Part shown: one piece after another, positions 10,051-43,500 of the stretch
How the letters are laid out: the number at the start of each line of letters is the position of its first letter
Numbering within the stretch: position 1 is the stretch's first letter
Assembly (NCBI GenBank): GCA_963789715.1
Contig: CAWBLQ010000006.1
Location: forward strand, 431,007 to 495,006
Origin: Candidatus Binataceae bacterium
GTDB taxonomy: Bacteria > Desulfobacterota > Binatia > Binatales > Binataceae
Length of the DNA: 64,000 nucleotides
Reading direction: 5' to 3'
Notes under the pieces: generated by a model
The model's input: only the letters and a program-made list of their open reading frames with translations
Told to the model about the DNA's origin: nothing
The model's database searches: none
Position numbers and translations under genes: made by a program

Positions 10051-11405
10051 GCGGCTTTGACTCGATCCATCTTGAGCGCCTTCCGCAGCCAGACGATTCC
10101 TTCTTTGAGTTCCGTCATCGAGATGATCGGCAAGAACCTGGAGAACAACGAGAAGAGCCCGACGAACCACGCGAAGCTGCCGACCGTGATCATGATTTCA
10201 GTGATCGACGGACGGTAGCTGGCCCACTGCGACGGCTCGAAGTTCGCCGTCAGCGAACCCGCGATAATCACGAAACGCTCGAACCACATCCCGATGTTTA
10301 CGAAAATTGTGATTACCCAGAGCGCCCTCAGGTTAACCCTGATGCGGGGCGAAAATAGCAACAATGGTATTACGCAGTTGCACGAGACCATTACCCAGTA
10401 CATCCATCCCCACGGCCCGAAGTACCGCATGTGGAAAGTCATTTGCTCGATTGGATCGCCCGCGTACCAGGTCATGAAGGCTTCAGTAATGTACGCATAG
10501 GAGACGACCAGCGACGTGAGCAGCACGACCTTCGCGAGATTGTCGAAATGCCACTCGGTCAGCAGGTCCTCGATGCCCAGCAGCCGGCGCATCGGGATCA
10601 GCAGCGTGATAACCATCGCGACGCCCGAGAAGATCGCGCCGGCGACGAAGTACGGCGCGAATATCGTGCTGTGCCAGCCCGGATTTATCGCCATCGCGAA
10701 GTCCCATGACACCACCGAGTGCACCGAAAGCACCAGAGGAGTCGCCAGGCCCGCCATCAGCAGGTACGCCATTGAGTAATGACGCCATTGCCGATCGGTT
10801 CCCTGCCAGCCCATGGCCAGCACCGTGTAGAACTTCTTGCGCCATCCGGCCGCGGCCTCGCGCGCGTTGGCAATGTCGGGAATCAGTCCCATCGTCCAGA
10901 ACAGGGCGCTAATAGTCAGATAGGTACTTACTGCGAAAGCGTCCCACACCAATGGCGAGCGGAAGTCGGGTTGCAGAGATCGCTCATTAGGATATGGCAA
11001 TAGCCAGTAGAAAAACCACACGCGGCCAAGATGGATTAGTGGGAACAGTCCTGCAGTAGCTACTGCGAATATAGTCATTGTCTCCGCGGCGCGGTAAACG
11101 GCGGTGCGCCACTTGGTGCGGAAGAGAAATAGAATCGCGGAGATCAACGTCCCCGAGTGCGCGATCCCGACCCAGAAGACGAAGTTAGTAATGTAGATTG
11201 CCCACATCACGGGCTGGCGAAGACCCGTCACGCCCAGCCCCGAGTAGATCTGGCGAGCCCACAACGCGCCCGCGATCGCCACCAGCGTGAAGCAGAATCC
11301 GATCCAGGCCCAGTACGCGAGGCCGGCCGGCTCCATCACCCGCAGCACGCTGCGATCGATGTCGCGGAAACTCGGCTCCGCGTTTATCTTCGGCGCCGCC
11401 GCCAC
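10047..11405 (-). CDS. actC: Alternative complex III subunit ActC (NrfD/PsrC family quinol-interacting membrane subunit)
   Basis: 452 aa, about 10 TM, NrfD-like. Lies between actB and actD. Confidence 0.85.
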   Translation of the reverse strand: MAAAPKINAEPSFRDIDRSVLRVMEPAGLAYWAWIGFCFTLVAIAGALWARQIYSGLGVTGLRQPVMWAIYITNFVFWVGIAHSGTLISAILFLFRTKWRTAVYRAAETMTIFAVATAGLFPLIHLGRVWFFYWLLPYPNERSLQPDFRSPLVWDAFAVSTYLTISALFWTMGLIPDIANAREAAAGWRKKFYTVLAMGWQGTDRQWRHYSMAYLLMAGLATPLVLSVHSVVSWDFAMAINPGWHSTIFAPYFVAGAIFSGVAMVITLLIPMRRLLGIEDLLTEWHFDNLAKVVLLTSLVVSYAYITEAFMTWYAGDPIEQMTFHMRYFGPWGWMYWVMVSCNCVIPLLLFSPRIRVNLRALWVITIFVNIGMWFERFVIIAGSLTANFEPSQWASYRPSITEIMITVGSFAWFVGLFSLFSRFLPIISMTELKEGIVWLRKALKMDRVKAA

Positions 11406-14336
11406 TCAGGCCTTTCCCTTCTCGCGATAAAGATCGCGCAGATACGTGATCGCCGGTTGCGTGTTGAGTTCCTCCAGCGCGCGATAGTTGCGCAGCTTGT
11501 TGTCCTCGCGCCGGCGCATCATCGCGCTGGCGGGATCGTTGCTGTCGCCAAACGTGATTGCTCGCGTCGGACACGCCTGCTGGCACGCCGTGACGATCTC
11601 GCCGTCGCGCAGCTCGCGATCTTCTGTCTTTGCGTTGAGCTCGCCGAACTGGATTCGCTGGATGCAGAACGTGCATTTTTCCATCACGCCGGCGCCGCGC
11701 ACCGTCACGTCGGGATTGAGTTGCAGGTTGAGCGGCGCCGGCCATTCCGGCACGAACCAGTTGAATCGACGCACCTTGTACGGACAGTTGTTTTCGCAAT
11801 AGCGCGTGCCAACGCATCGATTGTAGATCTGGCCGTTGAGGCCCTCCCCGGTGTGATACGACGCAAACACCGGGCATACCGGTTCGCACGGCGCGTGCCC
11901 GCACTGCTGGCACAGCATCGGCGCAAGGTAGAGTTGCGGCGCCTGCGCCGCTTCGCTGGCCTGCGGGAAGTAACGCTCGATGCGAATCCACGACATGATG
12001 CGCCCGTTGTCGACCCCTTCCCTGCCTACCCACGGAACATTGTTCTCCGCGTAGCACGCCGTCACACACGCGCTGCATCCAGTGCACGCATTGACGTCGA
12101 TCGTCATGCCCCATTTGTGTCCCGCATATTGCCAGGGCGCGTACATCTCGAACGGCCCGCTGACTTCTTCCGCCTCGTTCTTCGGCACGACGCAGCGCGC
12201 AAGCTGCTCGATACTCATCGCCTCGACGATCGATCGCCCCATCATGTCGCTGTTGCCCAGCGGTGAAACCAGCGTGCGAGTCTTGCCGGTCGCGCGCGCG
12301 GTCGTGGCGGCGTAGGTCGCGCCCGCCGCGAGTATCGCCCACGCATTGGCGCCGACGTCTTTTGCATAACGGCCGTACGCGCGATGCCCCTGCCCGAGCG
12401 GCACCGCGATCACACCGGGACGCACCGTGCTCTCGACCAGGACCGGCGCCTCGATCGCGCCGTGCTCGGTTTTGATCTCGATGACGTCGTCCTTGGCGAC
12501 GCCGAGCTTGCGCGCCGTCTCGGGATGCATCTCGGCCCAGCTGTCCCATACGATCTGCGTGACCGGCTCCGGCAACTCCTGCAGCCACGGCTTGTCCGCG
12601 CCGCGCCCGTCGTAAAGAAAAATGTGTGGATAGGCGTAAACCGAGAGTTCCATTTGAGCCGCGGCCGGCACCGGCGCTTTGAAAGGAGAGGTGTCGAGTT
12701 TGAGCGCCGACAGATGCTGTTCCTCGAACAGTCCGCCTTCGCGCCGGACGTTTACCCAGAAATCATCCGGAATCGCGCCGTCCGCTTTGGGAGCCAGCGC
12801 CAGCCACTCGGCTTTGATCGCCTCCGCGGTAGTCGTCCACGCAAGCTTCGCGCTCGAGGCTCGGCCGGCGGCCTCGAGCAGGATATCGCCCGCCGCCTTG
12901 CTGTCGAACACCGGCTGCATCACCGGCTGTCCCAGTCCGCGGATTCCCGCGCGCGGCGCCGTGTCGCGCCACGCTTCGAGCGGATGATGCGCCGGCAGGA
13001 CGAGACTCGCCATCGCCGCGGTCTCGTCCGGCACGCCGCCCGCCCACACCACGAACGGAACCTTCTGCAGCGCCTCGGCCATTCGCGCCGCCGCCGGCAT
13101 CGTGAAGACCGGATTCGCGCCCGCGACGAACACCGCGTCGATCTCGCCGCCGCGCATCGCGTCAACCGCCGCATCAACTTCGTCCGGCGTGCTGGCCTCT
13201 TCGGCCGGCGAGCCTTCCAGGAACATTATGGTCCTGCCGAAATTGCCGGTGACCGCGTTGAGGATCATCACCGCAAGATGAGCTGACGAATCGTCGGTGC
13301 CCGCAATCGCCAGCGCGCCGTCCGCCTTGCCGAATGTCTCGCCGAGCCTTGTGATGGTTTCGACCGGCACGCCGGTGCGCGCGCTGGTCGCGGACGGATC
13401 GAAATTCGCGACCGCGTTGGAGAGCGCCGCGAGATCGAAGCCCGAGTTCTGCGAAATCCAGCGCTGCTTGACCAGCACGTTGAGCACGCTCCACGCAACG
13501 TCGGCCTGCGCGCCCGGCGCCGTCGCGATCCAGTCGTCGCACTTCGACGCCGTCATGCTGAGCCGCGGGCCGACATAGGTCGCGCGTCCGAAAGTCAGCG
13601 CGCCGCGCCGTTTCTGTGGCGCGCGGAACAGCGAATATTGGCGCGCGAGTTCCACCGGCGATTGCCACGTCTCCAGGAAGTCCGCGCCGAAGGAAATCAG
13701 CACCTCGGCCTGATCGATTCGATAGGCCGGCAGATCGCGCCGGCCAAACAGTGTCTTCGCCGCGACCCGCGCCGGCTCCTGGTTGATTGCTTCGTAAAAA
13801 ATCGCGCGCGATGAACCATAAGCGCCGAGAAACGCGATCACGATCTTTCTGAAAGTCGGCCCCTGCGGCGAACCGAAGAACGCAACGCGCTCCTTGCCCG
13901 CCTTCGACGCCGCCACCAGCTTGTCGCCAAGCAGTTTCTCGGCTTCGTCCCACGACACCGTCCGCAATCCGCCGTCGTCGCCGCGAACCTGCGGATGCGC
14001 CAGCCGGTCCGGATTGTAGAGTCCTTGCAGCGCCGCCTGCCCCCGCGCGCACAACGCGCCCTGCCCGATCGGATCGGCGGGATTCCCCTCCAGCTTGATC
14101 ACGCGCCCTTCGCGGATTCGCGCCACCACGCCGCATCCCGCCGGGCACTCCGAACACGTCGTGGCGAAAAAACTCGGGACGCCCGGGACTACATTCTCAT
14201 CCGGCACCACGTACGGGATCAGCTTGCGCGCCGCCGGCTCGCAGCCGGGGATTGCCGCCGCCGCGCCCGCGGTCGCGGCCAGCTTGATGAACGATCGCCT
14301 GGATATCGACGGTCTCTCGCGCATCCGCTTCCTCAC
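11406..14336 (-). CDS. actB: Alternative complex III subunit ActB (molybdopterin-oxidoreductase-like domain fused to a 4Fe-4S ferredoxin domain, with Tat signal)
   Basis: 976 aa. Twin-arginine signal (SRRSFIKLAATAGAAAA). N-terminal CSECPAGC Fe-S motif. C-terminal multiple CxxCxxCxxxCP ferredoxin motifs (CTGCSACVTAC, CQQCGHAPCEPVCP, CVGTRYCENNCP). Confidence 0.85.
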   Translation of the reverse strand: MRKRMRERPSISRRSFIKLAATAGAAAAIPGCEPAARKLIPYVVPDENVVPGVPSFFATTCSECPAGCGVVARIREGRVIKLEGNPADPIGQGALCARGQAALQGLYNPDRLAHPQVRGDDGGLRTVSWDEAEKLLGDKLVAASKAGKERVAFFGSPQGPTFRKIVIAFLGAYGSSRAIFYEAINQEPARVAAKTLFGRRDLPAYRIDQAEVLISFGADFLETWQSPVELARQYSLFRAPQKRRGALTFGRATYVGPRLSMTASKCDDWIATAPGAQADVAWSVLNVLVKQRWISQNSGFDLAALSNAVANFDPSATSARTGVPVETITRLGETFGKADGALAIAGTDDSSAHLAVMILNAVTGNFGRTIMFLEGSPAEEASTPDEVDAAVDAMRGGEIDAVFVAGANPVFTMPAAARMAEALQKVPFVVWAGGVPDETAAMASLVLPAHHPLEAWRDTAPRAGIRGLGQPVMQPVFDSKAAGDILLEAAGRASSAKLAWTTTAEAIKAEWLALAPKADGAIPDDFWVNVRREGGLFEEQHLSALKLDTSPFKAPVPAAAQMELSVYAYPHIFLYDGRGADKPWLQELPEPVTQIVWDSWAEMHPETARKLGVAKDDVIEIKTEHGAIEAPVLVESTVRPGVIAVPLGQGHRAYGRYAKDVGANAWAILAAGATYAATTARATGKTRTLVSPLGNSDMMGRSIVEAMSIEQLARCVVPKNEAEEVSGPFEMYAPWQYAGHKWGMTIDVNACTGCSACVTACYAENNVPWVGREGVDNGRIMSWIRIERYFPQASEAAQAPQLYLAPMLCQQCGHAPCEPVCPVFASYHTGEGLNGQIYNRCVGTRYCENNCPYKVRRFNWFVPEWPAPLNLQLNPDVTVRGAGVMEKCTFCIQRIQFGELNAKTEDRELRDGEIVTACQQACPTRAITFGDSNDPASAMMRRREDNKLRNYRALEELNTQPAITYLRDLYREKGKA

Positions 14337-16284: not shown

Positions 16285-16839
16285 ATGCCCCATCGGGCTT
16301 TCATCGGAATAGGCAGTAATCTAGGCGATCGAGCCGCCAATTATCGCGAGGCGATTCAACGGATCGCGGCGATCCCGGACACGAGGGTCGTGCGCCAATC
16401 CTCGATCTACGAGACCGAACCGATGGGCGATCTCAAGGGCGCCTTCTTGAACGGCGTCATCGAAGTCGAGACCGAACTCCCCGCCGAAGTCCTGATGCGC
16501 CGGATGCTCGCGCTCGAGCGCATCATGGGCCGCAAGCGCGTCAAGGGCCGCAAGCAGGCCCGCGGCAAGTACCGGCCGCGAATCATCGATCTCGATTTGC
16601 TGTTCTTCAACAAGGAAACGATCGACACCCGCATACTCAAAGTGCCGCATCCGCGCCTGCATGAGCGCCGCTTCGTCCTCGCCCCCATGAGCGAGCTCGC
16701 GCCCGCGCTGATTCATCCCAAACTCAACGCGTCTATTTCCGAGATGCTGGCGGGACTCAAGTCACCGTTTCGTGTTACTCTCGCACGAGCGGACTTGCTG
16801 AGGCCGCAACCCTCAAAACGCGAGGCATCCACCCGATGA
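16285..16839 (+). CDS. folK: 2-amino-4-hydroxy-6-hydroxymethyldihydropteridine pyrophosphokinase
   Basis: 184 aa. [11 protein letters not shown]-terminus, IDLDLLFF, and the [11 protein letters not shown] motif typical of HPPK. Confidence 0.9.
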
Positions 16840-17486
16840 AATATTTTATCGATACCGCCGACGTCGCCGAGATTCGCGAGGCCGCCAGTTGGGGACTCAT
16901 CGACGGCGTCACCACCAATCCATCGTTGATGGCGAAGACTGGGCGCCCGTATCACGACGTGCTGAAAGAGATTTGCGAAATCGTCGACGGACCCGTCAGC
17001 GCCGAAGTTGTCGCAACAGAAGCCTCCGCGATGATCGAGGAGGGCGAGAAGCTCGCCAAGCTGCACAGGAACATCGTGGTCAAGTGCCCGATGATCGTCG
17101 AGGGCCTCAAGGCCACTCACGCGCTCGCCAAGCGCGGCATCCGCGTCAACGTCACGCTCATCTTTACTCCGCTGCAGGCGCTGGCGGCGGCCAAGGTCGG
17201 CGCCTCGTTCCTGTCGCCGTTCATCGGACGCCTCGACGACATCGGACAGGACGGCTTCCAGATCGTCGAGGAGATGGTGCAGATACTGTCGAACTACGAC
17301 TATCCCGCCGAGGTGCTGGTCGCGTCGGTGCGCAGCACGACTCATCTGCTGCGCGCAGCCGCTATAGGCGCGGACATCGCGACGGTCCCGTTCGCGGTGC
17401 TGAAGCAGACCCTGCACCACCCGCTGACAGACCTGGGCCTGGAGCGCTTCCTGGCAGACTGGCGCAAAACCAACCAAAAGATCTGA
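16836..17486 (+). CDS. tal: Short-type transaldolase / fructose-6-phosphate aldolase family protein
   Basis: 216 aa. [10 protein letters not shown]…TTNPSL…VKCPMI… pattern of MipB/TalC-type transaldolases. Its ATG overlaps the folK stop (ATGA). Confidence 0.85.
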
Positions 17487-17850
17487 CGGATCTTCGCCTC
17501 TCTCTGTCAGGGACCGACGCCAGTCTTCGAGCGGCGGGTAAGGGTCCAAATTCCAGGTTCTTCGCATCGCGAGGAATAAAGGGCCGCAACGCAACAGTCC
17601 GGATCTCTGCCTCTCTCTATCTGTCAGCTGTCAGGGAGAGGATGAAGGTGAGGGTCTTGTGCAGCGCGCGATTTTTTCCGCGCGCGATTCAGGATTCCGC
17701 TCCGGCTACCTCGCCCGTTCTTTTCACGGGAGAGGCAACCGGCCCGCGTCGCGGCCGGCAGGTGAGGGTTCCGCGACCGCAGCACAAAAGCACGACTGCT
17801 CACTGATCACTTTATTTTAATGCGGCACCCACCGTGGGTTCCGCACCTCC

Positions 17851-17915
17851 TTGGGCAGGGGTGACCCCTGCACCCGGTGACAGGATGAAGATGCGGGACT
17901 TTCGTCCCTGTTCGA
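17851..17915 (+). repeat. R1 palindromic REP-like repeat, copy 1 (GCAGGGGTGACCCCTGC hairpin + GGGACTTTCGTCCC hairpin)
   Basis: About 85% identical to copies at 23940-24005 (same orientation) and 43441-43500 (reverse orientation). All three copies are intergenic. Confidence 0.7.
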
Positions 17916-17953
17916 AGGGGGTTGGGGGAATTGCCTCGCCCGCTTCTTACGGT

Positions 17954-18832
17954 TCAGCGGTGCGAAACTAGGTGCCAGCGTGCACCGTCGAACCGGATTT
18001 CCCCGTGACGCTTCAAATACTGTTGGGCGTTACGAACGTAGTGTTTCCACTTCTTGCCGAAGTGCACCCCGTCAATGACGCGATCGGTGGAATCGTCACA
18101 TAGGTCCGGGTGGAGTAACTGAATTAATGGGTGAAGGTCCACAGTTCGCAGAGGACCCTTTGCGAGCAGGAATCTGAGCGTTTCCGAGAAGATGGCGTGG
18201 GTCGTTTTTCCCCTCGCCCGGTGACGCAACAGTCGAAGATTAGTCGCTTGCAGTTTCCTCTCAAATGCGCGCCGTGCTCGGTCGCGTATGGGTCTTTCTG
18301 CGCGCTGGAAAAGTGATTTGAGGTCTTCCACCTCCGCCGAGAGTGCCGCTACATCGTCAACGGAGACCTTTGCACCTAGCGAAGCGTAGCTTTCGAAGTC
18401 CGATCTGACCTCCCTAACGATACCTTCTTCCGTCAAGGCGACCCCGTATTCGACGTTCCCGCGCAAGCCAGGCTCCGTCAGGTTACCAGAGGTTACAATT
18501 GCCATCTTGGAGTCTGCCACGTAAACCTTGGCGTGAACGCTAGGCAAGTGCGTAAGCTCGAACCTGGGTAAGCTTCGGCCGAAATCGGCTATTGCTCCAA
18601 GGTCCATGGAGCCAGCGAGCGTGCTCTCGGGTCTGAGATCCGTAATGAGATCTACGCGCACCGAAGCACGGCGCGCCCGTTCGTCAAGCTGCTTAAGTAT
18701 CCGCTTCGTGGCAGAGCGCTTAACAAAGGGGCTGACGATGAGCAGACGTTCGTCGGCCAGAGAAATGAGCCTCTCAAGCGTTTCAGGCCAAGGACTCCGA
18801 ACGATAGATACCAGTCGCGCGTCCGGCGTCAC
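17954..18832 (-). CDS. PLD-family (single HKD motif) nuclease fused to a C-terminal Mrr_N-like winged-helix domain; restriction-type nuclease candidate
   Basis: HKD motif HAKVYVADSKMAIVTSGNLT in the N-terminal half. The C-terminal GVHFGKKWKHYVRNAQQYLKRHGEIRFDGARWHLV resembles the Mrr N-terminal winged helix. The gene has lower GC and is flanked by repeats. Confidence 0.6.
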   Translation of the reverse strand: MTPDARLVSIVRSPWPETLERLISLADERLLIVSPFVKRSATKRILKQLDERARRASVRVDLITDLRPESTLAGSMDLGAIADFGRSLPRFELTHLPSVHAKVYVADSKMAIVTSGNLTEPGLRGNVEYGVALTEEGIVREVRSDFESYASLGAKVSVDDVAALSAEVEDLKSLFQRAERPIRDRARRAFERKLQATNLRLLRHRARGKTTHAIFSETLRFLLAKGPLRTVDLHPLIQLLHPDLCDDSTDRVIDGVHFGKKWKHYVRNAQQYLKRHGEIRFDGARWHLVSHR

Positions 18833-19234
18833 GCGGGAGTCCAGACTACTCGCTGATGCTCGTCACCTCGGCAACCGCCGCCTTTAGTTCTCGCGTATTC
18901 GAGGCCCGCATCTGCGTCGCAATGGAAGCGCTCACAGGCATCGCATCGCTCGATGCAACGGCTGCCTATCTTGTTTGGTGGACCCGCGAGGATTCCCCTC
19001 ACTCCCGAGTACACCGTCCCGGGTTTCTGGCATTCGCAGCGCACCCGTCAAATCCTCACTTCAATCTCGCGGAACGGATCGTCGCGTTGACAAGTCTCCG
19101 CCGATCGCGTTCAGCGCGGCCATGTACTCCAGCGAATCACCGAGAATAATCTGGCCTCGTTTTGTTTTATGAAATGACGACATCTCTGCCCACTTTAGCA
19201 GGCGTTAGGTCCGGCGCGAACCACGTCGAAGGCG

Positions 19235-19305
19235 CACAGAGAATAACAGCAACTCGCGCGTTCGCACATCTTGTGGTTGGTTTTGCCAGTTTGCCAGTAA
19301 GCGTT
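19235..19305 (-). repeat. R2 repeat (about 65 bp, core GGCAGAACGAGGAACGCTTACTGGCA…CCAACC.GAAGATGTGAGG), reverse-oriented copy
   Basis: Reverse complement matches forward copies at 19670-19735 and 20575-20645, and a partial copy at 21486-21540. Confidence 0.65.
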
Positions 19306-19339
19306 CCTCGTTCTGCCGAATAGCTGCCGCCTGACGCAG

Positions 19340-19640
19340 GAAGGGATTACCAACTCCAATGACAACCGTTGTCATCAGGATCTGCGACGATGTTCGTATG
19401 ATTCTCTCACCGACTCCTGCCGATACACTCACATCGCAACACCCGAACTCCAGCCAATTCGCGGATTTGCTCACCGCCGATTTCACTCGTGCCCGTCCTC
19501 ACAGATTGATCCGCCGGCCCATTCCCGCTCACGCGCCCGCCGCCCACTCGATGGAAGAGATCGAAGAGAAAGTAAAAATGTCAAAAAACCCTCCGATCGC
19601 GGTTTCAGAACAATGTTTGTTTGCTCGTTCGCCGCTTTGG
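19340..19640. repeat. Element A: about 280-bp diverged repeat with perfect 7-1-7 palindrome TGACAAC-C-GTTGTCA at one end and a conserved GAAGARATCGAAGARAAAGTAAA block at the other
   Basis: Homologous to 39310-39620 (element B). The palindrome and the 23-nt distal block are near-identical, while the middle has diverged. Flanked here by inverted R2 copies. Confidence 0.6.
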
Positions 19641-19669
19641 TTCGAATCGTGGGCGTTTGGGAACATGTG

Positions 19670-19735
19670 GCGGAACGAGGAACGCTTACTGGCAGGCTGG
19701 CGCACACCAACCGGAAGATGTGAAGTTTAGACGGT
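19670..19735 (+). repeat. R2 repeat, forward copy abutting the methyltransferase start
   Basis: See the 19235-19305 entry. Forms an inverted pair with that copy around element A, and a direct pair with the 20575-20645 copy around the MTase gene. Confidence 0.65.
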
Positions 19736-20333
19736 GTTGCTTGTGGCGACTAACGGGTGGCGCGAGGTTTGGGATCACTTCAGGGGACGCGGCGCGTATC
19801 CGCATCAGTTCGCCTTCCTGCTGCTCAACCCGCTGCGCAGCCTGATCTTCTCGCCGCGCGAGCTGGTCGCGCGGCTTCATTTGACCGCGAACTCGCGGGT
19901 GCTGGAGCTTGGTCCGGGTCCTGGATTCTTCAGCGTTCAGATTGCACGCCGTATTCCCGGCGGTCATCTGTGCCTGGCGGACCTGCAGCGTGAGATGCTC
20001 GACAAGGCACGCGCGCGAATCAGGCGGGCGGGCGTCTCCAACGTCAGTTTCGCCCAGGCCAGCGCGAGCGCGCTGCCCTTTGCGCGCGAGGTCTTTGACG
20101 CCGCCTTTCTGGTCACGGTGCTGGGCGAGGTTCCCGATGCCGCGGCCTGCGTCGTGCAGTTGCGCGACGTACTCCGCCGCGGCGGTCTGTTGTCGATTAC
20201 CGAGCTCGCGGGCGATCCCGACGCGATGACCGAAGGCGATATCGCGGCGCTAGCCAAAGCCGCGAATCTCGAACACTCAGAGACGTTCACGAAGCGCTTC
20301 GGCTTCACGATCAACTTCAGAAAAGCGGACTGA
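19734..20333 (+). CDS. Class I SAM-dependent methyltransferase (type 11/UbiE-like small-molecule MTase)
   Basis: Motif I VLELGPGPGFFS and post-I acidic residue (LADL). The only in-frame early start is GTG/TTG at about 19734-19743. Confidence 0.65.
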   Translation: MLLVATNGWREVWDHFRGRGAYPHQFAFLLLNPLRSLIFSPRELVARLHLTANSRVLELGPGPGFFSVQIARRIPGGHLCLADLQREMLDKARARIRRAGVSNVSFAQASASALPFAREVFDAAFLVTVLGEVPDAAACVVQLRDVLRRGGLLSITELAGDPDAMTEGDIAALAKAANLEHSETFTKRFGFTINFRKAD

Positions 20334-20574
20334 ATTGAGCGGCGCCCTTTCGTCGCGCGATTGCAGAACCCTCACCTAACCCTTCGGCACTCGGGGCAGG
20401 CTCTCTCCCGTCGTTGCCGTTCCTTCCGATAAGGCAGATCTCATTCGGATGCAGCGAGGCGAAACCGGAACCGGCGGCGTTTGCGCGCCGCTGTCCGAGA
20501 TCCTTCTTTGCGCTCGCGTTGCTCGCTTCGGTCAGGATGACAAGCGTGGGCCCTTCCTTCGTCCGCGGTAAGCT

Positions 20575-20645
20575 ACCCGGCAGAACGAGGAACGCTTACT
20601 GGCAGACTCGCGTAAAGCCCAACCCGAAGATGTGAGGAACCTAAC
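20575..20645 (+). repeat. R2 repeat, forward copy, followed by a CTAACC-rich tail and GC-rich hairpin
   Basis: Matches the other R2 copies. Its tail (GGAACCTAACCTCTAACCCC…) is shared with the partial copy at 21486-21540. Confidence 0.6.
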
Positions 20646-20853
20646 CTCTAACCCCTTTTTTCGGGCCCGCGTGGGAAAGGGGAACCGGAGAGGAGAAAGA
20701 TTCCTGACAAAGGGCGGCAAAACAAGTCAGCATTTTCCTGCTATCAATTCGGCGGTCGAGCGTCTTATCCGACTGGTCTCAAATGGCGAGTTTGTTATTC
20801 TTGTTGAATGACATCCCTATTCGATGTGGGAAAACGGAAACTCCGGAGAATTC

Positions 20854-21126
20854 ATGAACAGGATCAAACTTCTTACAATACTTGCGGTGGCCGGAATCTG
20901 CTTCGCGGCGATGGCTCCCAAAACGGAGGCTCAGGTCACGATCAACATTGGAGTCCCGCCTGAGTGCCCATACGGTTACTATGACTACGCTCCCTACGAA
21001 TGCGCTCCCTACGGCTACTACGGCCCGGAATGGTTTTCCGATGACGTGTTCATTGGCGCCGGCCCGTGGTTCCATGGGCATCCCGAGTTCCAAGGCCACG
21101 TAAATAACACTTACGATCCTCAATAG
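20854..21126 (+). CDS. Small secreted Tyr/Gly/Pro-rich protein (signal peptide + about 65-aa mature part)
   Basis: MNRIKLLTILAVAGICFAAMAPKTEAQ signal peptide, then PECPYGYYDYAPYECAPYGYYGPEWF. Lower GC. No family recognised. Confidence 0.45.
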   Translation: MNRIKLLTILAVAGICFAAMAPKTEAQVTINIGVPPECPYGYYDYAPYECAPYGYYGPEWFSDDVFIGAGPWFHGHPEFQGHVNNTYDPQ

Positions 21127-21281
21127 CGGCTACAAAGGCCCGCGGCCAAAGCCGGGCGAAAAACCTGAGCCGTCCAAGCCTGTGGGTAAAGTTGCGAACT
21201 TCAAAGGAAATGAAGTGCGTGATGGGCGCGGTCACGTAGCCGAGGGCAAAAAATAGGAACATCCGCACGTGCACGACAAGT

Positions 21282-21473
21282 ATGATTTCAAAGAAGCGAC
21301 CGGTTGACGGATGGGCGAAACCGCGGGAGACCAAAGGCCAGACCATGGCGGAATACGCCCTTGTGCTCGCCGGACTGGCACTCGTCGCTTACGGGCTGAG
21401 TCCGACTTCCGGCTACAACTTCCTTGACAATGCGATCATGGCCTTGCTCGCGAAGGTTACGTCGCTGTTCTAG
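21282..21473 (+). CDS. Flp/Fap-family type IVb prepilin candidate (orphan, no tad genes in window)
   Basis: Flp-type processing motif G^QTMAEY followed by a hydrophobic ALVLAGLALVAYGL segment. An alternative start at 21345 would give a leaderless 42-aa product. Confidence 0.4.
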   Translation: MISKKRPVDGWAKPRETKGQTMAEYALVLAGLALVAYGLSPTSGYNFLDNAIMALLAKVTSLF

Positions 21474-21485
21474 GCAAGTCCCATG

Positions 21486-21540
21486 CGAGCCCGCCTGACT
21501 CTTCGCCCGAAGATATGAGGAACCTAACCCCTAACCCCTT
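21486..21540 (+). repeat. Partial R2 repeat tail (CGCCCGAAGATATGAGGAACCTAACCCCTAACCCC) followed by GC hairpins
   Basis: Matches the 3' part of the R2 copy at 20615-20660. Followed by the CCCTTCCCGCGCGGGAAGGG palindrome. Confidence 0.5.
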
Positions 21541-21625
21541 CCCGCGCGGGAAGGGGGACCGAATAGAAGCGATTCGCCTTTCCGCAGGGGAAGGGGGACC
21601 GGAGGACTACTTCGATGACAGGATG

Positions 21626-22783
21626 TCAGTTCGCGGCGGCGGAGCGTTCGGCTATCAGGCGGTCTAGTTCGGCGCGGAGCTTGGGTAGGACTTCTTCGTA
21701 GCCGTAGTAGCCTAGCTTGCGATCCTTTTTCTTGAGGTTCACCGTGGTCGGGCCGCACCATAGGCCGAGGTCGGCGTCGTCGGTTTCGCCCGGGCCGTTC
21801 ACGCGGCATCCCATGATCGCGATCGTGATCTTGTGCTTCTCGGCGTAGGTCGTGAGTTCCTTAACCTGCTGCGCCAGCTCGACGAATTTCTCGTTCTCGA
21901 CGCGCGAGCACGACGGGCACGAGATGATATTGAGTCCCGCGCCGAAGTCGGGCACCGAGATGAACCTGCCGGCGGCGACGTCCTCGATTATCTTGTGCCC
22001 GACGAGCACTTCCTCGTGCTTGCGCTCGTTGGGGAGCGTGAGCGAGACGCGAATCGTGTCGCCGATATCCTGCGCGAGCAGCTTCTCGAACGCGATGCGG
22101 GTCTTGATGATGCCGTCGGGCGGCAAGCCCGCCTCGGTGACGCCGAGATGAAGCGGCACGTCGGGCCGGCGCTGCGAGAATCGCCGATTCGCGTCCATCA
22201 CCTTGTTGGGATCGGAATCCTTGAGCGACACGACGAAGCGGGTGAAGCCGAGCTGGTCCATCAGATCGCAGTGGTACGCGGCGGACTCGACGATCGCCGC
22301 CAGCTGATCGCCGGGGTACTTGTCGAGGAAGGCCGGCGCCACCGAGCCGCAGTTGACGCCGATGCGGATGGCGACGTCGTTGTCGCGCGCGACCTCGACC
22401 AGCCATTTCACTTTTTGCTCGATGGTCTTCGACTTCTCGATGTGGTGCAGATGGCCGGGGTTGTAGCGAATCTTGTCGACGTGCGGCGCGACCCGGTCGG
22501 CGATTTTATAGTTCTCCTGCAGATCGACCGACAGCACGACGCCTTTGGTCTGCCGGCGGATTTCCTTCAGCGCCGGAATTTCCTTCTCACTGTCCGTCGC
22601 GATCCGGACGATTCCCGCGCCGGCGTTGGCGAGCTGATGCGCCTGCGCGATGGTCTCGTCGATGTCGATGGTGCGCGTCGCGCACATCGATTGGACAACT
22701 ACCGGCGCATCGCCGCCGACCCTGGTCCCGCCAATCGTGATCTGCCGTGTCTTCCGATCTTTTCGTACTAAAGCCATTGCCAC
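21626..22783 (-). CDS. ispG: 4-hydroxy-3-methylbut-2-en-1-yl diphosphate synthase (MEP pathway)
   Basis: 385 aa. Typical GcpE pattern (QSMCATRT…, three Cys of the 4Fe-4S site CPSCSR…GCRVNGPGE). Confidence 0.95.
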
Positions 22784-23493: not shown

Positions 23494-23940
23494 ATGAGTA
23501 CCGTGGTCTCCACAATCGCCGCCGCCGATCCGCGTCCGTTTCCCGACGTTATCCTGCGCAGCCAGTTTTTCGAGATGATGGGCACGCGAGCGCTGTCGAG
23601 CGAGCAGCGGCTGATGCTCGCAGTGCTGGCCGACGCGATCAACATCGTGCAGGAATTCGGCGGCTCGTCGAGCCTGCGCAAACGCAACTCGTTCAACGAC
23701 GCGTGGAACTGGTTCTTCGCTAAGGGCGTGTCGTGTCCGCTGTCGTTTCTGAGCGTGTGCGACGCGCTGGGGATCGACGCGCAGGGCTTGCGATGGCGCC
23801 TGTCGGAACTCGTCGCAGGCCGCGGCGGCACTCCGCTGCGGCTGCGGCTGAAGGAAGCGAGTCGGATGCAGCGGCTCACGGTGAATCGAGTGCGGCGGCG
23901 CGATCCGCGCAAGACGCATCGCGGCACTCGGGCGCGGTAG
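23494..23940 (+). CDS. Hypothetical protein (148 aa), first gene of a three-gene unknown cluster
   Basis: Strong RBS GGGAGGGAGGAAG before the ATG. Host-like codon usage. No domain recognised. Confidence 0.5.
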   Translation: MSTVVSTIAAADPRPFPDVILRSQFFEMMGTRALSSEQRLMLAVLADAINIVQEFGGSSSLRKRNSFNDAWNWFFAKGVSCPLSFLSVCDALGIDAQGLRWRLSELVAGRGGTPLRLRLKEASRMQRLTVNRVRRRDPRKTHRGTRAR

Positions 23941-24005
23941 GCAGGGGTGACCCCTGCACCCAGTTACTAAGACAAGGATGCGGGACTTCGTCCCTGTTAG
24001 AACTC
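23940..24005 (+). repeat. R1 palindromic REP-like repeat, copy 2
   Basis: See the 17851-17915 entry. Lies between gene 1 and gene 2 of the SprT-like cluster. Confidence 0.7.
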
Positions 24006-36559: not shown

Positions 36560-37754
<1,195 letters not shown>

Positions 37755-38084
37755 CCGAAGCGAGCAACGCGAGCGGAGGGAAGGATCTCGGACAGCTTCG
37801 CGCCAGCGAAGCCGGTACCGGTTTTGAAATCGCGCAGCGCTCCTTGCTGAGATAGCCGCGCAAGCCTCCCATTCTCATCGGATGCGGCAACCCAAAACCG
37901 CAACCGGCTTTGCTTACTACCCCGCACGAATTGCCCGTAGCGTAATCAGTAAGATTTCTTGTTGGACTCAGTCCAAACCCTTCAGCACTCCTAGCATGTG
38001 GCTTCTAGACTCTTCTTCTGTTTGGTCAAACGCTCGGCTGATTAAGCGCAAGACTAAAATTCCGGCCGATTTTTCGAGAACTTT

Positions 38085-38513: not shown

Positions 38514-39227
38514 CTATATTGCCTTGAACACTTCGGGCTTTATCTCGACCTCTTCGACCGTCTTCGTGAGAACCCCGATCTTCAGTTGCTTAAGCAGATC
38601 GCAGAGCTGTTCTCCATCCAGCAAATCAATTGGATGGGCGCCTTCGCGTGCTGCCTCTCTGCGAGCGTCAGGCGTGAATCGGCCGGTTGTAATGAACAAG
38701 CCCTTGTCTGTGCGGCCAGACATTGCCCCGCGAAAGTCGCGGACATCCTTCGCGGGGACGGTTCCCTTGTAACGCTTGCATTGAAATAAAACCTGAAAAG
38801 ACAAGAGATTTACCCGAAGGACGCCCATTCCGTCGATCCCGCCGTCTCCCGACTTTCCCTTCACGTCTACGTTGATGAATCCGGATTCGCGCAAAAGTCG
38901 CTGCGATAGGCGCTCAAACGCATCGGGCGGCATCGCCTGCAAAACCGCCAAGAGCTCGTCGCGCCAAGTGTCTTCACCAGGTGACTCCTGCTCGCTCAGA
39001 CCTTGGCCTTTTGGTGTGATGCTCCACACGGCGCGGCTGCTATTCTCCACCGCACCAAACAGCCGAAGGTATGTCCGCGCCCACCTTGACCGATATTCAA
39101 TCTCGGTAAGCGGGCCGTTACCATGCGGAACCTTTTGGGCTTCATCCGAGAGTTTGATGATCGCGACGACCTTATCGACATTTCCCCGTGCGATCCCTCC
39201 CCGTTGCCGCGATGTCCAGACATCGTA
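38514..39227 (-). pseudogene. mrr: mrr-like Type IV restriction endonuclease, 5'-truncated (Mrr_N winged helix partly present + complete Mrr_cat domain)
   Basis: The catalytic domain (…DGGIDGMGVL…FQCKRYKG…FITTGRFT) is intact. The in-frame upstream extension encodes Mrr_N-like …EIEYRSWRARTYLRLFG…VWSITPKG, but runs into a stop at 39228-39230. About 20-25 N-terminal residues are missing and no canonical start exists. Element B begins about 80 nt further upstream. Confidence 0.5.
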
Positions 39228-39309
39228 TCACGGAACCGGAACCGGCTTTCGCGTCGCGCGGAGCTGTCCGAGGTCCTTCCTCGACTCGCGATGCTCGCGC
39301 CGTCAGGAT

Positions 39310-39620
39310 GACGCGTGCTGACAACCGTTGTCATCAGAGATCTGGCATAATACTCAGCATGCTTGGTTCACCTGCTTCCGCCAACCCACTTCTCCCCGAT
39401 CAAACGATCCCAACTCTTCATTGGCCCCAACTTCAGTTTCACCCGTCGCCGGATCGCTCGCTCTGCCGATACTTTCCTCCCATCACGCGCACCGACCCGA
39501 CGGAAGAAATCGAAGAAAAAGTAAACTATCGACCAGAACCGTTCCCGTCATTTTAAAACAGTGTTTTTTCATGCCCTCGCAACCGCCGCTGCGCCGTGCC
39601 ACTCTGTGCGCTTGCCCTTT
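39310..39620. repeat. Element B: homolog of element A with the identical TGACAACCGTTGTCA palindrome and a GAAGAAATCGAAGAAAAAGTAAA block
   Basis: See the 19340-19640 entry. Lacks the flanking R2 repeats. Lies between the truncated mrr and dedA. Confidence 0.6.
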
Positions 39621-43408: not shown

Positions 43409-43440
43409 CAGGGCTTCCCTGCCCCCATTTTTCTAACAGG

Positions 43441-43500
43441 GCGTAAGCCCGCATCCCTTCTTCTCCTGATACCGGGTGCAGGGGTCACCCCTGCCGCGGG
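43441..43500 (-). repeat. R1 palindromic REP-like repeat, copy 3 (reverse orientation)
   Basis: Reverse complement matches copies 1 and 2. Lies between the GH13 gene and pepN. Confidence 0.7.

Follow-up and report, generated by a model that had tools for sequence, protein, structure and literature searches.

A repeat confined to the tal-ispG locus of Candidatus Binatus very probably derives from the 3' end of tal and may record small insertions behind that gene

The DNA considered here is a 64-kb window (the whole stretch analysed, from the 815-kb contig CAWBLQ010000006.1 of a metagenome-assembled genome) of an uncultured soil bacterium, Candidatus Binatus (Binatota), in which the convergent genes tal and ispG are separated by 4.1 kb of DNA holding a short repeat, designated R2. 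This repeat is very probably derived from the 3' end of tal itself, and its copies are best explained, in what we regard as the probable though far from certain account, as scars of integrase-mediated Campbell-type insertions at that gene end, similar to those left by cis-mobilizable elements (CIMEs). The account draws on the homology of R2 to tal, its restriction to one locus, empty sites in relatives, variable cargo placed against the stop codon and a parallel in another species; from these we infer the topology and order of the events, as well as the enzyme, the latter because no integrase was found. Coordinates follow the numbering of the window, and L-numbers are labels of fetched contigs of relatives or from metagenomes. 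The array and its borders consist of the following features:

16836..17486, plus strand: tal, a gene of the transaldolase / fructose-6-phosphate aldolase family (Pfam TAL_FSA, E = 1e-58)
17438..17486, plus strand: the last 49 nt of tal with its TGA stop codon, which form the live version of what R2 repeats and are presumed to be the attB-like insertion site
19265-19345, minus strand: R2 copy c1, with a tal-derived part (19265-19310) and a non-tal head (19311-19345)
19669-19723, plus strand: R2 copy c2, with the head GGCGGAACGA and a tal-derived part that ends in TGA
20551-20635, plus strand: R2 copy c3, with head 20551-20585 and tal-derived part 20586-20635, followed by a CTAACC run and a hairpin to about 20683
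21506-21558, plus strand: the partial R2 copy c4, in which the final 13 nt of R2 are followed by a CTAACC run and a hairpin
21535..21601, no strand assigned: an inverted repeat rich in GC, between c4 and the stop of ispG, that resembles a bidirectional terminator
21626..22777, minus strand: ispG (GcpE; Pfam GcpE, E = 2e-99), convergent with tal and bounding the variable region

R2 comprises three full copies, one of them inverted, and a partial tail, all inside the tal-ispG interval. Its 22-nt core, GAACGAGGAACGCTTACTGGCA, was found with at most one mismatch at 19291-19313 (minus strand), 19673-19695 (plus) and 20583-20605 (plus), and none of 100 shuffled sequences gave a match; the tail CCGAAGATGTGAGGAACCTAACC lies at 20624-20646 and 21507-21529, with no occurrence expected by chance. 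By alignment, c1 and c2 form inverted arms of 33 nt that are 91% complementary and 351 nt apart, with a separate element, A, between them, and c2 and c3, repeated directly at a distance of 910 nt, enclose the open reading frame (ORF) of an S-adenosylmethionine (SAM)-dependent methyltransferase (19734-20333). Scans and alignment thereby confirmed the repeat, its inverted pair and its direct pair as described in an earlier, sequence-only reading of this DNA. An extra stretch of about 25 nt upstream, unmentioned in the earlier reading, is common to c1 and c3, and c3 and c4 share a second direct repeat, in which c4 is 80% identical over 61 nt to 20623-20683, beginning 13 nt before the end of R2. 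The CTAACC run and GC-rich hairpins are common to the tails of c3 and c4, the hairpin after c4 folding with z = -3.7. The earlier reading was right about these runs and hairpins, and wrong in having small genes follow both tails, as c4 is placed after the Flp-like gene and abuts the 3' end of ispG, so that no cassette gene lies downstream of it. The arrangement was recovered in independent, short-read assemblies and is therefore no artefact of assembly: 2683 nt of Logan contig L007, c1 and c2 included, match at 100% identity, and the JGI contigs L009, L011 and L012 are 97-99% identical across c2, c3 and c4.

Over its 3' two-thirds, R2 shows homology to the final 49 nt of tal with the stop codon (78-80% identity in c1, c2 and c3), which the earlier reading had missed. 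In BLAST searches with R2, the tal end was the only match outside R2 (E = 4e-7 in a search of 6.2 kb and 5e-7 in one of the whole 64-kb window), and a whole-window repeat search listed 17431-17464, within the tal 3' end, as a third and weak member of the R2 family. The tal end reads GGAGCGCTTCCTGGCAGACTGGCGCAAAACCAACCAAAAGATCTGA and c3 reads GGAACGCTTACTGGCAGACTCGCGTAAAGCCCAACCCGAAGATGTGA at the corresponding part; the stop codon holds the same position in c2, c3 and c4. Among the copies, the tal-derived part is 82-86% identical, with indels of 1-2 nt. The similarity of R2 to tal ends tracks phylogeny, ranging from 70-83% for close Candidatus Binatus (Tal at least 90% identical) to about 46-65% for the most distant relatives (Tal less than 70% identical). 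Directly 5' of the tal-derived part, every R2 copy carries the conserved motif GGCrGAACGA, which tal lacks; this non-tal head is shared over 11 nt by all three copies and over about 35 nt by c1 and c3, and no convincing tal homology was found beyond position -49 upstream in c1 and c3. Taken together, the alignments point strongly to an origin of R2 from the tal 3' end.

Two other readings of the copies were considered and set aside. R2 as a protein-coding sequence is ruled out by the 1-2-nt indels between copies and by a stop in c3 three codons upstream, and a tandem duplication of the tal end with its downstream sequence is ruled out by the different DNA that follows each copy. As an observation on tal itself, its last 49 nt tend to differ less in nucleotides across Binatus species (L014-L048; 4-10%) than the rest of the gene (11-15%), although single comparisons of this extra conservation are at best borderline (p = 0.05-0.09, L028 and L017).

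R2 is specific to this locus across the window, the species representatives and the metagenome contigs. The exact 22-mer has no match in the species-representative genomes of GTDB (one per species), and a permissive two-part R2 pattern found four contigs among 241 million metagenome records, all of the same tal-ispG locus and with a c2/c3 spacing of 901-911 nt; scans of viral contigs for R2 and for the tal end gave no matches. The census comprises the window and these collections, the source genome having been scanned directly within the window. No Rfam match was obtained for the whole window at gathering thresholds or for 17400-21700 at E <= 1, and each copy, folded as one or both strands, did no better than its shuffles (z = +1.9, +0.9 and 0); R2 is therefore no palindrome of the repetitive extragenic palindromic or bacterial interspersed mosaic element type (REP/BIME), no attC hairpin and no recognisable RNA. 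An origin as a dispersed REP/BIME-type intergenic repeat or as a small structured RNA would agree with the intergenic and repeated occurrence of R2, and genuinely dispersed repeats do adjoin it, but a non-palindromic sequence that folds like its shuffles, matches nothing in Rfam and occupies one locus leaves this explanation barely credible. The earlier reading had preferred att-like or cassette-like sites to REP scatter and had named a genome-wide or REP/BIME distribution as the outcome that would speak against it. Such a distribution was not seen in the window and collections, and the preference has held, with a single locus, a tal-derived sequence, empty sites in relatives and co-oriented accessory genes.

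The inverted pair c1/c2 had also been read as the ends of a unit resembling a miniature inverted-repeat transposable element (MITE), built around the following element:

19360..19640, plus strand: element A, a repeat in its own right and separate from R2

Element A spans about 280 nt, starts with the palindrome TGACAACCGTTGTCA and lies in the window upstream of c2 and the methyltransferase. The case for a non-autonomous transposon with R2 as terminal inverted repeats is the geometry of the two arms given above. However, the two components occur separately. A second copy of element A, at about 39316-39600 (~39.3 kb), is 71% identical, has no R2 flanks and lies upstream of a VTT/DedA-family gene; in L002 and L003 an inverted copy stands beside tal with 84% identity and no R2 arms (L002 4996-5259, minus strand); and in L009, L010 and L011, element A and c2 are present without c1. 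As element A is found without R2 in sister strains and at ~39.3 kb, R2 is not a MITE terminal repeat. In addition, R2 is found as direct copies around unrelated genes, no further c1-A-c2 unit occurs in the window or the collections, and no target-site duplication was found, so the MITE-like unit was not borne out and deserves next to no weight. Element A itself has no Rfam match, and its 123-codon ORF, which varies freely between strains, has none in Pfam.

Comparison with relatives shows what the locus looks like when it is unoccupied. Throughout the Binataceae tal and ispG are convergent neighbours, and in L032, L016 and L079 the gap between them measures 26-42 nt, which provides the empty sites that the sequence-only reading had proposed to look for. 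Elsewhere the gap reaches up to about 6 kb where ispG lies in the fetched flank, and other loci have no ispG within 10 kb. Among strains with an identical Tal protein, the DNA that begins 1-3 nt behind the tal stop is of three different kinds; strains vary in the tal-proximal part, and the distal order of element A, c2, methyltransferase, c3, secreted protein, Flp-like gene, c4 and ispG is common to the window strain, L009, L011 and L012. The gap genes of the window are:

17954..18832, minus strand: gene with a phospholipase D (PLD)-like nuclease domain (Pfam PLDc_2, E = 5e-15), downstream of and co-oriented with the inverted c1
19734..20333, plus strand: class I SAM-methyltransferase gene (Pfam Methyltransf_31/25/11)
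20854..21126, plus strand: called gene for a small secreted Tyr/Gly-rich protein of 90 aa, with no Pfam match
21282..21473, plus strand: small Flp-pilin-like gene, with a G-QTMA-EY motif followed by a hydrophobic stretch, the called gene being a 42-aa form; Pfam does not confirm the identity

In other species the gap holds mixed accessory cargo, including an AAA_15/AAA_21 ATPase, a glycosyltransferase and an ice-binding-like protein. A parallel is seen in L031, from another Binatus species, where the final 115-128 nt of the species' own tal recur in two additional direct copies of 84-97% identity that end exactly at the stop (tal end and copies at 10525-10652, 11425-11552 and 11741-11868, the two copies starting about 12 nt apart). 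Between tal and the first copy, at a spacing of 900 nt, lies a VOC/glyoxalase gene present in no other surveyed locus, and an IS1595 transposase gene follows the second copy. These tal-end copies were acquired independently of R2. A diversity-generating retroelement, with a template and a variable repeat at a gene's 3' end, was rejected on inspection of the alignment, the L031 mismatches not being adenine-specific and the Pfam matches of called genes nearby including no reverse-transcriptase domain. The opposite border has its own counterpart: a 42-nt relic of the ispG 3' end, of about 32 nt coding sequence and 10 nt flank, is found midway within the variable region in L002 (6577-6618, equal to window 21616-21657) and L003 (6209-6250), and is followed, on its own strand, by a co-oriented DUF433-PIN_10 gene pair. 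This relic with its gene pair is the mirror image of the tal-end relics.

With fragments that end at the stop and are oriented like tal, different DNA after each of them and an empty site in relatives, Campbell-type insertion is the simplest account. The 4.1-kb gap would have been built by successive single-crossover insertions of small circular DNA into the tal 3' end, each incoming circle bringing a replacement gene end and displacing the old end together with its former downstream DNA; as a replacement would be supplied each time, tal would stay intact. Starting from the tal end, the array would be ordered as c1 with the PLD module, element A, c2 with the methyltransferase, c3 with the secreted protein and the Flp-like gene, and c4 with the original terminator hairpins before ispG, so that the oldest junction (c4 and the terminator-like hairpins) would lie beside ispG and the most variable material beside tal. 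The left end of c4 would be the distal cargo junction, and the sequence from c4 to ispG is presumed to be the original DNA downstream of tal. The copies c2, c3 and c4 are co-oriented with tal, and so is c1 if the segment 17806-19359 is flipped to the orientation of L009. The repeat that flanks this segment of about 17806-19359 has the opposite orientation in L009 and L011, where it abuts element A, and c1 may have become inverted through a later rearrangement (an inversion or a re-insertion) of this tal-proximal segment.

The agent of these insertions would most likely be a site-specific integrase, either encoded on elements that have since decayed or acting in trans, and in either case the islets would resemble cis-mobilizable elements joined by tandem accretion. 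The conserved head would represent the element-side arm, and the boundary between head and tal-derived part the crossover point. At present the R2 copies are probably functionless scars, which may nevertheless still serve as substrates for deletion, inversion or re-capture; the predicted joint of a c2/c3 deletion is A-R2-GGAACCTAACC, and that of the corresponding circle is U repeat-R2-AGTTTAGACGG-MTase, where MTase denotes the methyltransferase gene.

Several results weigh against integrase-mediated insertion. No integrase or recombinase was found in the window by motif scan or among the called genes about 20 kb to either side, and none in the strain variants or the larger gap ORFs examined from other species, a search by motif regular expressions and by Pfam on a subset of ORFs that was not exhaustive; the nearest recombinase is an IS110 transposase 15 kb away, and neither R2 nor the tal end occurs on any viral contig scanned. 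At 0.3-0.9 kb, with one or two genes each, the islets are very small, and of about 80 loci surveyed by profile search, tal-end relics turned up in just two lineages. Within the present tal, the final 49 nt show no significant excess of substitutions over the rest of the gene and no sign of a foreign origin. Furthermore, all three R2 copies share a TTC>TTA change found in no surveyed tal gene, so the copies may descend from one another rather than from three displaced gene ends, and if they do, R2 itself would be a reused site. Finally, the duplicated lengths vary from 49 nt (R2) and about 61 nt shifted downstream (c3/c4) to 42 nt (the ispG relic) and about 115 and 128 nt (L031), and such variation in length and boundary fits homology-driven insertion at least as well as the action of one precise recombinase.

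These points bear on a rival account with the same single-crossover topology, in which general homologous or illegitimate recombination operates without a dedicated recombinase. DNA of a relative, carrying a tal 3' fragment with its own downstream cargo, would circularise and recombine through the tal homology, and since strains differ in the DNA downstream, this homology can extend no further than the stop codon. The varying repeat lengths and 5' boundaries, a 3' boundary exactly where inter-strain homology ends, the failure to find an integrase in the window, its neighbourhood, the variants or the tested gap ORFs, and an ispG relic that argues against a single sequence-specific site are all in its favour. 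However, the non-tal head, conserved over 11 nt in c1 to c3 and over about 35 nt between c1 and c3, is what would be expected of a recombinase arm site or a common attP, 49 nt is short for an efficient RecA-dependent crossover, and circularisation of incoming linear DNA is an extra assumption. Recombination of this general kind is considered rather unlikely.

The cargo bears on a further rival, in which R2 would be the working site of an unrecognised integron-like platform, the tal end corresponding to attI and R2 to attC, with the recombinase encoded elsewhere and ORF-sized promoterless cassettes read through from tal. The copies c1 to c3 are each followed, in their own orientation, by co-oriented accessory genes, and no sigma-70-like promoter was found in the region. 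The methyltransferase of the gap is a displaced paralogous copy of a Binatus core gene, whose native context in other species is redoxin-MTase-bolA-glutaredoxin (grx) (L099 6001-6594, L101 6001-6594); in a third, unrelated context (L100 1239-1846), a 93%-identical methyltransferase is ORF-precise, with breakpoints within a few nt of its start and stop codons. In L010 (478-1077) the methyltransferase switches in mid-gene from the gap-copy to the native-copy sequence, and this hybrid could be a real recombinant or an assembly chimera. The window strain and L002 have their modules in different orders, the junctions falling at R2 tails and stop codons, and together with the three methyltransferase contexts this suggests that a cassette-shuffling reading should be kept alive, without proving it. 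The better conservation of the 5' half of R2 relative to its 3' half, and cargo typical of cassettes (toxin-antitoxin pairs, nucleases and small proteins), are likewise in agreement with an integron-like site.

The diagnostic elements of integrons were nevertheless missing. The sequence ACCTAAC after c3 and c4 has no paired GTTAGGT, no hairpin with R''/L''/L'/R' boxes (RYYYAAC ... GTTRRRY) was found, and the folding scores given above indicate no attC-like hairpin in any copy; upstream lie genes for an aminotransferase, HPPK and Tal, neither IntI nor another recombinase stands beside the array, and no Phage_integrase match lies within about 20 kb, all in agreement with the earlier reading, which had likewise seen neither an integrase nor an attC core. 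The sites number only three or four, in two lineages, their 3' halves carry frameshifting indels and look neutrally decayed, and no excision or circle junction was observed. An integron-like function of R2 is thus improbable. The same low standing is given to the wider idea that the tal 3' end is the entry site of an undescribed gene-capture platform without attC hairpins or a linked integrase; in its specific form, gene-sized promoterless modules, among them the ORF-precise methyltransferase copy, would be inserted behind the tal stop, at tal-end-derived sites still used by a trans-acting recombinase or by host machinery, and this too we think doubtful. The ispG-end relic would suggest that such capture may extend to gene ends in general at this hot spot.

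Other properties of the cargo can be noted here. The PLD-like gene is missing from L002, L004, L009 and L011. On its strand it is preceded by a 40-codon ORF (19061-19183, minus strand; MSSFHKTKRGQIILGDSLEYM...), a fragment without Pfam match that by eye looks like the N-terminus of a DNA methyltransferase, and the two may form a decayed restriction-modification pair. Exact-protein look-ups for the PLD protein, the 90-aa protein and IspG gave no new contexts.

Insertion scars at the tal 3' end would have several precedents. Elements of the ICESt1/ICESt3 family of Streptococcus thermophilus insert in the 3' end of an aldolase gene, fda. Prophage e14 and phage 21 integrate in the 3' end of icd in E. 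coli and carry a substitute end, the displaced end being left as a pseudogene fragment. As with these phages, the target gene in Binatus would be kept intact by a substitute 3' end, but there a single large prophage brings its own integrase, whereas here gene-sized islets form an array. The row of co-oriented, apparently promoterless, ORF-sized genes with a repeated site and toxin-antitoxin and small-protein cargo is similar to integron arrays and to clusters of attC sites lacking integron-integrases (CALINs), from which it differs in that R2 has no attC hairpin or R/L boxes, no IntI was found and R2 stems from the adjacent host gene.

Further parallels are found among integrase-less islets flanked by att sites, whose stacking in tandem is a described outcome of accretion for cis-mobilizable elements (PMC5704250). 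The Binatus array shares with CIMEs the integrase-less islets, the repeats (attL/attR in CIMEs) that hold the end of a housekeeping gene and the tandem stacking at one site (PMC5704250). However, CIMEs are defined by descent from an identified integrative and conjugative or integrative and mobilizable element (ICE/IME) with a known integrase, and as no parent element was found here, membership cannot be claimed. In Dehalococcoides, the tandem genomic islands at the tmRNA gene ssrA (ssrA-GIs) have a 20-bp repeat from the RNA gene and range from several kb to tens of kb, 16 of them with the serine-integrase module dsiB, and a conserved non-target motif upstream of the repeat was used to map the crossover (PMC3146451). 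The tal array resembles these islands in standing behind a single-copy core gene with repeats of its 3' end (direct in c2 to c4, inverted in c1), an upstream motif, strain-variable cargo and some units without integration module (PMC3146451). It is unlike them in its protein-coding target, its repeat of about 49 nt, its units of under 1-2 kb and in that no variant was found to carry an integrase. Gene-end fragments at an insertion hot spot are a known kind of structure; what is unusual here is the tiny size of the islets and the lack of a visible integrase.

In practical terms, an apparent new repeat family becomes a readable insertion history in which the repeats mark entry points, and it is a reminder that locus-restricted "repeat families" can be fragments of a neighbouring gene. 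The tal-ispG junction emerges as a hot spot for accessory genes, with nuclease, toxin-antitoxin, methyltransferase and pilin-like cargo, in an uncultured and globally distributed soil phylum (Binatota). If the islets are indeed mobilised without a linked integrase, this would illustrate the spread of very small gene modules from strain to strain; if the copies are scars only, the locus would still be useful for strain typing and for dating insertions in Binatus populations.

Further repeats lie in and around the gap, and unlike R2, the GCTGTCCGAGATCCTTC family and the GGCAGGGGTGACCCCTGC element are dispersed. Two copies adjoin the features described above:

17806..17943, plus strand: palindrome-bearing dispersed repeat (GGCAGGGGTGACCCCTGCACCC...), of which sister strains have the same copy inverted, directly beside element A
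20437..20554, plus strand: dispersed repeat (GCTGTCCGAGATCCTTC...GTCAGGATGAC) just upstream of c3, with GCTCGC between the two motifs

The first belongs to a dispersed element of about 65-140 nt that opens with the palindrome GCAGGGGT/GACCCCTGC and occurs in many Binatus genomes, and in the window at 17806-17943, 23940-24002 and 43431-43495 (minus strand). In three other species (L022, L036 and L038, position 10652), an element with this palindrome starts at the first base after the tal stop. Further copies of the GCTGTCCGAGATCCTTC family lie at 37751-37824 (minus strand), directly downstream of an IS110-family transposase gene, and at 39250-39315, directly upstream of the second element A. 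An involvement of IS110 bridge RNA, considered because the 74-nt repeat beside the transposase gene recurs upstream of c3, was discarded: this repeat forms a dispersed family of its own, and when IS110 inserts, no target of about 50 nt is duplicated. The IS110-family transposase gene (36786-37754, plus strand) and a gene for an Mrr-type restriction endonuclease (38514-39050, minus strand) stand between citrate synthase and the DedA-family gene, and this pair may represent another small accessory patch.

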